64,000 nt of DNA from a virus. Taxonomy: Duplodnaviria; Caudoviricetes. The stretch lies in the IMG/VR virus record IMGVR_UViG_3300028048_002144, one strand, 5' to 3'. Numbering within the stretch: the stretch's first letter is position 1; every line of letters starts with the position of its first letter. Below the pieces are notes generated by a model, which was given only the letters and a program-made list of their open reading frames with translations, did not search any database and was not told the DNA's origin. The translations under genes were made by a program, and so were the position numbers. Below are positions 12,902 through 56,032 of the stretch, piece after piece.

Positions 12902-13016
12902 TTATATTCTCCTTTCTTATCTATAAAAATCTATCTTTAATATGAATTATTTTTTGCACGAAAAAACCACCCAGATTACTCTGAGTGGTTTTATAATTCT
13001 TATATGAACTTACAAC

Positions 13017-41293: not shown

Positions 41294-41932
41294 TTAGTTG
41301 AGTGCATTCTTCATCTTTACAATAGTTTCATCGTATTTATTTCTTACTTTTTCTAAAATCTCTTCTACTTCAATCGGGTGATTGTCGTTAGAATCAACGC
41401 CTACATGGAACCATAGAGGGTTGATTGCTCCATTCTTGTTCATGAAATCCTCTTTCTGATGCGTATGCCCAAAAAGAGAAATTACTTCTGAACCTAGATT
41501 ATCCTTATACGGATATGGATCTACATTTGTAGGAATAGCGTACGTTTTCACTACTGGATAATGTGAGATAATGAATTTTTGCTTGTTAATAGTAATTGTA
41601 TGTGCAACATCTGGGAAAACATTAAATCCAAGTTGCTTATAGATTTTTACCTTAGTGTTAGTATCGTGATTTCCTAGAGTTACACATACATTTTTGCACT
41701 TAATTTCTTTTAATAAGCTATATACATAGTTATAAGCTTTCTTATCTCTATCTATATGCATATCTCCCATACAAATGTCTCCTAAGATGTATAGATAATC
41801 ATCTTCAGCGACCATATTGTTTATATTATCTATAATTGCACGGTCATGTTCTTTTATTGAATTAAACCCTCGCTTTTTATAGATAAATTCTTTGTTATGA
41901 TTTAGATGTAAATCACTTGTAAAAAAATTCAT
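41294..41932 (-). CDS. Calcineurin-like metallophosphoesterase (phage type)
   Basis: TSDLH, LGD, GNHD, SHYP, GHTH, HVGVD. Confidence 0.92.
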   Translation of the reverse strand: MNFFTSDLHLNHNKEFIYKKRGFNSIKEHDRAIIDNINNMVAEDDYLYILGDICMGDMHIDRDKKAYNYVYSLLKEIKCKNVCVTLGNHDTNTKVKIYKQLGFNVFPDVAHTITINKQKFIISHYPVVKTYAIPTNVDPYPYKDNLGSEVISLFGHTHQKEDFMNKNGAINPLWFHVGVDSNDNHPIEVEEILEKVRNKYDETIVKMKNALN

Positions 41933-42058
41933 ATAACGCTCCTCTCAGGTCTTTTTTAATTAATCAGATTTAATATGAATGATTTTTATACGAAAAAACC
42001 ACTCAGATTATTCTGAGTGGTTTTACAATTCTTATATGAACTTATAATGTTATGTTTT

Positions 42059-42230
42059 AGATGCAAATCACTCGTAAATTGACGCACCCATTGGCTAAAA
42101 CCAATGGGATTCTTGCTTCACCGTGCGGTTGCACTATTTAGTATCTGCTTTTGTAGTACCTCATAGCGACTTACATACACTCCACAAGCGTGACTTTCCG
42201 AGCGTCCCTCGGTAGTTAATGTTTATAGGA
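42059..42230 (-). ncRNA. TnpB omega/reRNA scaffold plus guide
   Basis: ACGCTTGTGGA, GTAAG and TGAAGCAAGAA shared with the second element; guide starts at 42078. Confidence 0.75.
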
Positions 42231-43418
42231 TTAATCTGCTCCGAAGCCTATTATTTCTAATGCTTTGTCGAGAATATTATCTGCGGCATTGTTATCCCTA
42301 TCGTGATAAGCACCACAAACAGGACAAGTCCATTCTCGAACATTAAGATTCTTAACTTCTTTGTTTTGATAGCCACAATGATTACACAACTGACTTGATG
42401 CATAGAACCTCGGTACTTTGACAACTGTACTACCGTAGATTTTAGCTTTGTATTCAATCATAGTTACAAACTTTGACCAAGAAGCATCAGAGATAGACTT
42501 TGCTAATTTGTGATTACGAACCATTCCTTTTACATTAAGATCTTCGAGTGCTATCAGTTGATTTTCCTGAACAATCCTCGTTGACTCTTTCTGTAAGAAG
42601 TCATTCCTTTGGTTAGTAATATGTTCATGTATCCTTGCCACAACCTTACGTTGTTTCTGTATGTTGGAACATTCGGATAGCGGTCTATCATATATCGGAT
42701 GCCTATAACCTTTAATGATTTTGTAGCCTACGATATGACTTTCTATCATTTTGGAAAGTTTATGTTGCGCTTTAGCGAGTTTCTTCTGTGATTTTGTTAA
42801 GTACTTGTTGTTAGGGCATTTGTAACCGTTGGTATCAGAATAGAAATCTTTGATACCAAGATCAATGCCTACCATGTAACCGTTGTTGGTTACATCAGAT
42901 GTGGGCACATCTACATTCAACACACAGAAGTATTTATCACTTGGCGTTTGCTCTATGGTAGCGTTGTTTATTTTTGCAGAAGATAAGTCCATAGAAACCT
43001 TTGCCTTGACGTAGCCAAGTTTTGGCAACTTAATATGTTTGCCATCTAAAGTTACACAGATATTGTTGTTTACATTCTGTGTGCGGTAGGTTTTAAAGGT
43101 TTCCTTTTTAGACTTAAAGTGAGGGTAGCCTGCTAAATGTTTAAAGAAGTTTTTATATGCTCTATCCAAATCCTTTAGGGCTTGTTGCAAAGATATAGCG
43201 TCTACATTTTTTAGGAAAGCAAAATTATCTTCTTTCTTTAGGTTGGTCAGCATAGCATTGGTTTCTTTGTAACCAATACCAACGGAAGTAGTTTCGTAGG
43301 TTTCTTTACGCAGAGCAAGACCTTTATTGTAAACCAATCTACAACAACCAAAAGTATTCGCTATTAAGTTTTGTTGTGTTTTATTAGGATATATCCTTAT
43401 ACGAACACCTTTTAGCAT
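42231..43418 (-). CDS. tnpB: RNA-guided endonuclease TnpB
   Basis: RIYPN..Q, FGCCR.VYN, RuvC D-E-D intact (GIDLG, LEDL, DRDNNAA), zinc finger. Confidence 0.95.
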
Positions 43419-43444
43419 ACTTATTACTCCTTGTAATCTATTTC

Positions 43445-43473
43445 TATAATAATGCGAGTTAGTAAGTGTAAAA
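43445..43473 (-). promoter_or_regulatory. Sigma70/SigA-type promoter for tnpB
   Basis: TTTACA-17 nt-TATTAT upstream of AAGGAG RBS. Confidence 0.55.
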
Positions 43474-44005
43474 TAGTTTTTCGCCCATGAGTAATTTATA
43501 AAATCTATTGATACTAATTATTTTTTCTCTTTTTCTTTATCACTTTCTTTTTCTTCCTTGTTTCTATCTTTTTTCTCTAAGCATACTTTATCATCACAAT
43601 CTTCACAAAACATATACGTGACTTTGTGATCTACTATAGGGCAATATTTACTCATGTTCATGCCTTTCTAAATTAAATTGTCCATATTTTTAAAACTGTT
43701 AAACTAAGTAAAATTTGGGCAAAGTATATAACATCTTTACAGTTTTTTACTTTATAATGGCTATTAGTTATAGCATTTACTATGTTAACTAGACATTTTT
43801 GCACTTCTGGAATTCCTAAAGATGCAATTGCAATAATCACTGCGACAAATATTACCATTCCTAGCGCATATTCTGAACAATATGGTGAGTCATAATTTTT
43901 CACAGCGTTTAAAAAATTTATTGCAAAACTCATAGAAATTAGTAAACACGTTGAACATAAGATTACTCTTGACATCATTTCCATCATAAACATTCTCTCT
44001 TTCCG

Positions 44006-44500: not shown

Positions 44501-44627
44501 ACTATCTTCCTTTTGAAAACAATTTCTATATTATTAATATGACTTGAACTTCTACTTTTAAGGATTTTCGTTCCGTTTTTCTATAAAAAAAGAACCCACA
44601 AATTGTGAGTCCTTTTATAGTAAATCA

Positions 44628-54682: not shown

Positions 54683-56032
54683 ATTGCTCCGACTTTTATA
54701 AGTCGGAGCTTCTTGCTTCAACCATTACTGCATTCCTAACAAGTTACCTTGTCGGCTCGTCTTACACAATGTCCACAAGCGTATAAGTTCGGGCTATTCC
54801 ATCCCTACTATAATATTTAGTTCTAATCTACTTCAGCCAGTAGTCGTAATCCTTCGTTTAGGATATTGATAGCTGCGTTTTGATCACGATCCATCGTAAG
54901 ACCACAATCGCATACCATTTTACGGATGGTTAAGTCTCTCATTTCTGGATGTTTTGTTCCACAACAATGACAAATTTGTGATGACGGGAACCACTTATCT
55001 ACTTTTACAAGATATTTGTTTCTTTCTGATAACTTATATTCAAGCATCGACAGAAACATACCATAACCGTTATCCAGAGTAGCTTTACCGTTCCCAAATC
55101 CTTTATTAGACATAGCTTGCATGTTTAAGGATTCCACACATACAACATCATACCGATTGGCTATCTCAGTAGATATCTTATGCAGATTATCCAGACGCTG
55201 ATTAGCAATATGTCTATGGATTTTGTTTACTTTACGGAGTTGTTTTATATAATTTTTGGACTTTACCTCGTGTTTTTTAGATCCTTGCATGCGGGATAGC
55301 CTACGCTGTGCTTTGGCAAGTTTATCATGACTCTCACGATAATATTTGTGATTAGTTCCTACGTTACCGTTGCTATCCACATATAAGCCATTAGAAGCGT
55401 AGTCTAATCCGATAGCATTGGTCTTATCTGCTACATAAAGATTTGTTATATTCGCAAACTCAAAAAGAATAGAAATATAATATTTGCCATCTGATTCTTG
55501 TGATACGGTAGCGGATTTAATAATCCAATCGCTATCAGGAATACGATGGATAACTGCTTTTACCTTACCAATCTTAGGAAGCTTGATATATTTATTCTCT
55601 ATGATAGCAACAGTGCCTTTTTGATTATTAGTAGTATAGGACTTTCGGCTATGTTTTGCAGACTTGAATTTAGGGAATCCGTTTTTCTTTTTGCGGGATT
55701 TACTAAATGCATTGCGAAATGCTTCCTGTAAATCCATTTGCTTATTAGCAAGAGCTAGACTATCCACTTCTTTGAGATAAGGATAATCTTTTTTGTATTT
55801 AGCAGGTGTAACAGTAGGGAACTTGCCAGTAGCCTTGTAACCTTCAATTTTATCGGAAAGCATAAGATTCCAGACCTTACGACAACAGCCAAAGGTTTTA
55901 GCAAACATAACAGATTGTTCAGTTGTCGGATATATTCTGTACTTAATTGCTCTATTCATTAACTACCTCATGCGATTCATTTTATCGCCTATACTGTGCT
56001 TATTGGTGAGGAAATCTCGTCCACGGTGACTC
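54679..56032 (-). mobile_element. IS200/IS605-family TnpB-only element inserted 3' of TTAT at the end of clpX
   Basis: Right end GCTCCGACT-TATAAA-AGTCGGAGC then TTCAC; TTAT at 56036-56033; removal leaves sensible ends for both flanking ORFs. Confidence 0.8.
54823..55959 (-). CDS. tnpB: RNA-guided endonuclease TnpB
   Basis: YRIYPT, FGCCR, GLDY, VESL, DRDQNAA. Confidence 0.95.
   Translation of the reverse strand: MNRAIKYRIYPTTEQSVMFAKTFGCCRKVWNLMLSDKIEGYKATGKFPTVTPAKYKKDYPYLKEVDSLALANKQMDLQEAFRNAFSKSRKKKNGFPKFKSAKHSRKSYTTNNQKGTVAIIENKYIKLPKIGKVKAVIHRIPDSDWIIKSATVSQESDGKYYISILFEFANITNLYVADKTNAIGLDYASNGLYVDSNGNVGTNHKYYRESHDKLAKAQRRLSRMQGSKKHEVKSKNYIKQLRKVNKIHRHIANQRLDNLHKISTEIANRYDVVCVESLNMQAMSNKGFGNGKATLDNGYGMFLSMLEYKLSERNKYLVKVDKWFPSSQICHCCGTKHPEMRDLTIRKMVCDCGLTMDRDQNAAINILNEGLRLLAEVD

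Follow-up and report, generated by a model that had tools for sequence, protein, structure and literature searches.

A TnpB element in an uncultured phage-like genome with a second copy of the neighbouring phosphoesterase gene start at its guide position

Does a phage genome hold the parts of an RNA-guided gene drive? This question is raised by a tnpB gene and an adjoining metallophosphoesterase gene located within positions 41,294 to 44,005 of IMG/VR virus record IMGVR_UViG_3300028048_002144, of which the whole stretch of 64,000 nucleotides (hereafter the 64-kb window) was analysed. TnpB is known to bias the inheritance of its transposon. Its role as the homing nuclease of that transposon is established (PMC8612924; bioRxiv 10.1101/2023.03.14.532601), a TnpB gene drive independent of TnpA has been shown experimentally in plasmids (PMC11870625; Mears et al. 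2025), and a 2026 review counts phages in co-infection among the theoretical targets of "transposon non-restorative homing" (PMC13565253). A first-pass annotation of the window had proposed that the guide of this TnpB targets the neighbouring gene family while the resident gene is immune, as in a candidate homing locus built on a domesticated element. The anatomy of that proposal, the relic of the phosphoesterase start as guide and, at the sequence level, the protection of the resident gene are retained here, but the domestication is not. We somewhat favour a reading in which the element is a stranded selfish passenger with a displaced gene start as its guide, which would have retained the capacity to cut a TTTAT-bearing allele of a co-infecting relative.

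The observation behind this reading is a short duplication. Positions 42048-42078 and 41893-41923 form the best direct repeat of the region (28/31), and the 30 nt at 42078-42049 match codons 4-13 of the working phosphoesterase gene (41923-41894) at 27 positions, all three mismatches falling at third codon positions as first annotated. The 20-nt core of this guide occurs in the window only at these two sites, with 0.04 expected by chance. The features of the locus, from its upstream to its downstream end, are as follows:

43518..43661, minus strand: open reading frame (ORF) of 47 aa, the last ordinary phage gene ahead of the element; stop codon TAA at 43520-43518, no Pfam family.
43504..43517, minus strand: left flank TTAGTATCAATAGA, perhaps what decay has left of the start of the displaced gene copy (ATC AAT AGA ..), without start codon, from reading of the sequence.
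43498..43503, minus strand: TTTTAT, the insertion motif and transposon-associated motif (TAM) of this insertion sequence (IS) family; it abuts the left end in the window and in the relatives L008, L011, L017 and L010.
43472..43497, minus strand: left-end remnant, the first ca. 26 nt (AAATTACTCATGGGCGAA..), followed by a deletion scar; 84-88% identity to the left ends of L008, L011 and L017.
43419..43471, minus strand: final ca. 12 codons of a lost helix-turn-helix (HTH) gene and the tnpB ribosome-binding site (RBS) AAGGAG; aligns to the 3' end of the HTH gene of L008, L011 and L017.
42231..43418, minus strand: tnpB, 395 aa, intact by its Pfam domains, its match to ISDra2 structures and its catalytic residues.
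42079..42260, minus strand: predicted omegaRNA scaffold, overlapping the 3' end of tnpB and terminating in GTCAA (TCAA at 42082-42079); conserved in six copies.
42049..42078, minus strand: guide position, a 30-nt relic of the phosphoesterase gene start (FTSDLHLKHN), paired with 41923-41894.
41969..42044, minus strand: terminator-promoter cassette, with a hairpin at 42024-41995 and a T-run followed by the promoter-like motif TTCATATT at 41979-41972; from folding and a duplicate copy.
41294..41932, minus strand: working metallophosphoesterase gene, 212 aa, with its own RBS GAGAGGAG; Pfam Metallophos.

The genome is uncultured, phage-like and ca. 205 kb long, and its minus strand holds every gene of the window. 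Two separate assemblies, the 205-kb contig of the European Nucleotide Archive (ENA) and one of Logan, agree base for base over the locus, which is therefore not an assembly artefact.

The ends of the element were set by pairwise comparison of the window copy with five relatives from unrelated contexts; the same metagenome, a Eubacterium metagenome-assembled genome (MAG) and an IMG/VR viral contig each supplied one of them. The right end is ...GGGTGCGTCAA in all six copies, beyond which the bases differ (TTT, TTT, ATT, TCG, TTC and ATA), while the left end is (T)TTTAT followed by AAATTACT... in every copy that has a left end (n=5), with unrelated DNA before the motif. Five independent copies thus fix the ends at TTTTAT and ...GTCAA, so that the relic, which begins at the first base past GTCAA, sits exactly at the guide position; the right-end TCAA and the TTTAT motif of the first-pass annotation are both borne out by this comparison. 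These data support the assignment to the IS200/IS605-type TnpB/omegaRNA elements, with TTTAT as the insertion motif. The protein has many relatives at 82-93% amino-acid identity, the nearest tnpB genes being those of the Eubacterium MAG and of the same metagenome, and the element has a GC content of 36.5% versus 30.2% for its flanks; it most likely derives from a Eubacterium-like host pool.

The three differences between guide and working gene are ACG/ACA, TTG/TTA and AAA/AAT at guide positions 6, 16 and 24, the first two being synonymous. The resident target at 41923-41894 is preceded by ATTTT (41928-41924) and not by TTTAT, in agreement with what had been annotated. Cleavage by TnpB requires the TAM and a TAM-proximal seed. 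With ATTTT in front and a mismatch at guide position 6, the resident gene would therefore be safe from cutting, and its proposed immunity stands at the level of sequence: TTTAT is missing and guide positions 6 and 16 are mismatched. That the third-position mismatches reflect recoding of the working gene is a weaker proposal. Under random decay the chance of all three differences falling at third positions is 1/27, but it is the relic, not the working gene, that holds the rare state at all three: ACG accounts for 8% of the Thr and TTG for 13% of the Leu codons of the genome, and Lys at the third differing residue is found in none of 115 homologues, while the working gene has the common Asn and the preferred codons. 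Since the relic holds rare or unseen states, its drift would fit as well as a diverged functional allele. The Phe that precedes FTSD in the resident protein was also considered as an unusual change for escape from the TAM and was rejected, F being found in 26/115 homologues. The working gene thus appears to show no sign of recoding for escape.

What the element has lost is seen by comparison with its full relatives, in which two left-end hairpins and a TTGACA-17-TATAAT promoter precede an XRE-type HTH gene of 57-58 aa directly upstream of tnpB. In the window copy ca. 270 nt are gone between the short repeats GAAAACCCATT and GAACCCATT, which removed both hairpins, the promoter and most of the HTH gene; the subterminal left-end hairpin CCCATYAGCTTTAGCTGATGGG of the relatives, taken in the first-pass annotation to be eroded, is in fact absent by deletion, together with the second hairpin. 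In IS200/IS605 transposition TnpA requires the left-end hairpin, and with the hairpins deleted TnpA would therefore be unable to move this copy, which is stranded. The window copy is, on the evidence of its structure, the descendant of a mobile element that would no longer be mobile itself. Of the genes called up to 6 kb to the left and right, none is a Y1 transposase (tnpA), the remaining window not having been scanned exhaustively, so that the annotated lack of tnpA is borne out for this interval. Non-autonomous copies commonly lack tnpA.

The HTH gene of the full copies (L008:86-445, L011:2650-3000, L017:2646-3000 and L010:1130-1453) lies between the left end and tnpB, has the above promoter as its own and encodes a protein of the PF01381/PF12844 type. 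By analogy, this small protein may be a repressor comparable to Arc of IS605-family elements (10.64898/2026.09.24.754181), in which a small DNA-binding protein gene likewise stands beside the element promoter; it differs from Arc in being of the XRE HTH type instead of ribbon-helix-helix, and its gene is deleted in the window copy.

In silico analyses further indicate that tnpB and the RNA scaffold look intact. Three Pfam domains, HTH_OrfB_IS605, OrfB_IS605 (RuvC) and the Cas12f1-like TNB (zinc finger), were detected with E values of 2e-19, 6e-21 and 1e-23, and ISDra2 TnpB structures match with an E value of 7e-80. In the alignment to the 408-residue chain, the RuvC residues D186, E292 and D375 correspond to D191, E278 and D361, which makes the annotated D-E-D triad complete, and both CxxC pairs are kept. 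The pairwise ratio of non-synonymous to synonymous divergence (dN/dS) of tnpB to its relatives is ca. 0.06, a sign of purifying selection, and 42 synonymous and 9 non-synonymous changes are private to the window lineage; the synonymous divergence (dS) to the nearest known tnpB is ca. 0.65, a value in which the portion of the branch inside the phage is not separable. The right-end scaffold is conserved across the six copies with 54 predicted pairs, 6 of which show compensatory changes. A match to Rfam RAGATH-18 at 42110-42188 on the minus strand, inside the predicted scaffold, is sub-threshold (24.8 bits versus a cut-off of 44.9), and no intron was found by Rfam at the locus.

With its own promoter lost, tnpB would depend on phage transcription. 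A promoter-like phage motif recurs 33 times in the window, with copies at 44536 and 41972, and no terminator occurs between the one at 44536 and the hairpin at 42024-41995. The gene is thus predicted to come last in a phage unit bounded by the cassette terminator, the phosphoesterase gene opening the next unit. The nuclease is probably still produced and charged with a guide of the relic sequence.

The cassette between relic and gene (42044-41969) had been annotated as nearly identical to 12939-13011, and its alignment to 13011-12936 agrees, with 71/78 columns (ca. 91% identity). Its terminator, a hairpin of -20.3 kcal/mol (z = -6.4), occurs in the window in these two copies only, the other 31 promoter-like motifs having different terminators. 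The relic stops after codon 13, four bases ahead of the cassette, and the CATAA found there recurs around the stop codon at the second copy of the cassette, an overlap that hints at a microhomology junction. The duplicated 78-nt cassette may function in the manner of the promoter/stem-loop cassettes that are mobile in T4-type phages.

The phosphoesterase family offers such an element a ready-made site. Its usual N-terminus is M-I-(Y/W/F)-F-T-S-D-L-H, and in 11 phage contigs of IMG/VR (L029-L039) the gene begins with ATG ATT TAT / TTT ACA AGT GAT (MIYFTSD), i.e. with TTTAT and a near-copy of the guide. TTTAT/TTTACA being a natural start of phosphoesterase genes, it would be a landing and target site already in place for this IS family. 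In the working gene all metal-binding motifs of the family alignment are kept. Its N-terminus (M-N-F-F) is atypical, with Asn where 100/115 homologues have Ile, and compared with the homologues it has 10 additional residues behind motif II.

Joined to the guide, the left flank of the element had been annotated as an alternative 5' end of the same gene. It does read in frame (..NRFY/FTSDLH) with TTTAT at the junction, and it resembles the existing family N-termini MNKIY-FTSDLH and MNRIF-FTSDLH. From the upstream in-frame TAA to the junction it holds no ATG, GTG or TTG, with ATC where ATG would be needed, and no good RBS; its similarity to the resident 5' region is not above that of shuffled sequences (4029/5000 and 1475/5000). 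The annotated 5' end is thus upheld for frame and motif and not for start codon or significant 5' similarity, and its reconstruction as an old gene start is plausible from the sequence.

These features of the flank bear on an explanation in which the relic came first. An earlier replacement of the gene start would have left a dead stub of 45-50 nt between the 47-aa gene and the cassette, and the element would have landed later at the TTTTAT of this stub, TnpB being a mere passenger and the match between guide and gene a historical accident. The absence of a start codon and RBS from the stub agrees with such a history, as does the fact that in a densely coded phage insertions survive only in dispensable DNA, and the Lys codon and rare codons of the relic would fit non-coding sequence. 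Against it, the 64-kb window offers 564 TTTAT sites, so that an element would hardly have met an existing stub by chance, and insertion of a terminator, promoter and start would have had no evident advantage before the element arrived. Such a module would be useless in an intact gene and would restore a gene interrupted by an IS, which favours insertion of the element first. An origin of the relic before the element is on balance unlikely.

Under the stranded-passenger reading, we infer an order of events, as well as expression, cleavage and any spread, along the following lines. A full element, made up of TTTTAT, hairpins, promoter, small HTH gene, tnpB, omegaRNA and GTCAA, would have entered a copy of the phage metallophosphoesterase gene right at its beginning, on the 3' side of TTTTAT. 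Ten conserved motif-I codons to the right of the insertion would have persisted as the 30-nt relic, which its position alone would turn into the guide template. Illegitimate recombination would most likely have restored the gene by placing a terminator-promoter-RBS-start module and a fresh set of the first 13 codons behind the relic, so that the start of the working gene would now stand 155 nt beyond that of the relic with its own terminator, promoter motif, RBS and start codon. A later deletion between short repeats would then have stripped the left-end hairpins, the promoter and the HTH gene. At present tnpB would be read as the final cistron of the upstream phage unit, with an RNA that ends at the cassette terminator, and the element would be a passenger of low cost. 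A TTTAT-bearing allele of a co-infecting relative could be cut and the element copied there by recombination, no such allele being known.

Several points weigh against this reading. The rare states of the relic may fit drift from a once identical copy, in which case the guide would have come to mismatch its first target. The left flank has no start codon, good RBS or 5' similarity, so that the copy hit by the insertion may have been non-functional beforehand. The dS of ca. 0.65 would mix time before and after entry into the phage, from which purifying selection within the phage is not demonstrable, and the order of events is likewise not demonstrable without relatives of the phage.

A more far-reaching explanation would make of the same parts an active home-and-rescue gene drive, i.e. 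a TnpA-independent homing cassette that comprises tnpB, omegaRNA, relic, terminator-promoter cassette and new gene start. TnpB would cut TTTAT alleles in co-infecting relatives, repair would copy the cassette, and the built-in promoter and start would keep the gene working and uncuttable, so that the cassette would spread or exclude rivals at little cost. The intact nuclease and scaffold, a guide equal to the displaced gene start, the protected resident copy and homology on both sides are in line with this explanation, as is the retention of the element despite its immobility. It would also have precedents in the TnpA-free drive of plasmids (PMC11870625) and in the homing into co-infecting phages that has been proposed (PMC13565253), and its target would be a conserved motif whose usual coding, ATG ATT TAT / TTT ACA, carries the TAM in many phages.

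The searches for targets speak against an active drive. TTTAT followed by a perfect guide was found neither in IMG/VR, nor in JGI metagenomes, nor in 301 genomes from the family to which the Eubacterium MAG with the closest tnpB belongs, although the missing alleles in these collections do not equal absence in nature. The exact 20-nt guide has no occurrence in IMG/VR, where the codon-degenerate pattern FTSDLHL(N/K)HN and the right end joined to the guide, which would indicate the same insertion elsewhere, also gave none; in JGI metagenomes the degenerate pattern was met in one unrelated phage, without a TAM. All near-targets have A or T where guide position 6 is G. The phage itself is an orphan without known relatives in the collections searched: there is no near-identical DNA among 50,697 phage records, the phosphoesterase and two neighbouring genes find relatives in IMG/VR at no more than 39% identity or none, and in a set of 5.8 billion proteins the nearest phosphoesterase has 43% amino-acid identity and the nearest homologue of the 245-aa neighbour 56% over 65% of its length, on contigs that are not syntenic. 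The duplication of a neighbouring gene in the guide is absent from nine other TnpB loci (four published phage loci and five close relatives), and the rare states of the relic suggest drift. An active drive of this kind is therefore doubtful, though less so than an origin of the relic before the element.

The duplication is also absent at the second, unrelated tnpB of the window (54823-55959, minus strand). Its product of 378 aa has the three Pfam domains of TnpB. The gene stands last, behind one for a ClpB-like AAA+ protein, and ca. 500 nt of DNA that is non-coding or holds antisense ORFs come after it.

The guide search in the Eubacterium MAG and the 301 genomes of its family returned two imperfect phosphoesterase starts and two chance matches only. 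The two starts belong to bacterial genomes (L023 and L024) in which the phosphoesterase begins in a similar way, at most 2 mismatches from the guide, and would be what an RNA-guided action elsewhere has in its favour, whether directed at host phosphoesterase genes or, as in TldR, at repression of the neighbour gene. Their TAMs are imperfect (TATAT and TTTAC) and the seed is mismatched. TldR is nuclease-dead and has its guide directed to a promoter region beside a TAM, whereas here the RuvC residues are intact and the resident site has no TAM. Action of this sort is highly improbable.

Compared with ISDra2 and IS608-type elements (Karvelis 2021, PMC8612924; Meers 2023, bioRxiv 10.1101/2023.03.14.532601), the window element has the same three TnpB domains and catalytic residues, a predicted scaffold that overlaps the 3' end of the gene, a predicted guide just past the right end (...TCAA as in IS608) and a TAM equal to the left insertion motif TTTAT. 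It differs in having no tnpA nearby, in the deletion of the left-end hairpins with the resulting immobility, in the XRE-type HTH gene that its close relatives have between left end and tnpB, and in a guide that is a second copy of the neighbouring gene start. With the plasmid TnpB drive (PMC11870625; PMC13565253) it shares a multicopy replicon, a guide that records the empty site and a spread that would not need TnpA, but here the replicon is a phage-like genome, cleavage is putative, and a replacement gene start would keep the interrupted gene working.

The free-standing homing endonucleases SegF and MobE of T-even phages, which act in intronless homing and marker exclusion (summarised in PMC13565253), likewise adjoin a conserved phage gene, and in both cases the carrier allele would be protected by sequence differences while a rival allele would be cut and converted in co-infection. 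Here, specificity would come from an RNA guide and a TAM and not from protein-DNA contacts, the origin is an IS, and no rival allele is known. In IStrons, which combine a group I intron with an IS605/IS607 TnpB (PMC10690162), a TnpB element inside a gene also avoids harm; these splice from the mRNA, whereas here a duplicated start with its own promoter would restore the gene.

Overall, the comparison newly establishes, as far as sequence can, a left-end deletion that would strand the window copy, an apparently intact tnpB and scaffold, and a predicted position of tnpB at the end of a phage transcription unit. Taken by itself the locus proves nothing on activity, since relatives of the phage have not been sampled; it does supply a fully defined element, TAM and guide. 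A TnpB drive between co-infecting phages is so far only a proposal, and a guide made of a displaced gene start next to a rebuilt start that cannot be cut is the layout that a phage TnpB gene drive would need. In the literature no phage TnpB was found that comes together with a substitute for part of a gene. That the locus is one of a class of phage home-and-rescue cassettes that recurs and has so far gone undescribed, in which a TnpA-less TnpB with omegaRNA, a displaced-gene guide and a replacement piece would spread by RNA-guided cleavage and recombination, is a tentative idea that we consider possible but improbable. If true, the arrangement would represent a third way, besides IStron splicing and intergenic insertion, for TnpB elements to spare their carrier, and an active home-and-rescue cassette would be an RNA-guided counterpart of the free-standing homing endonucleases.

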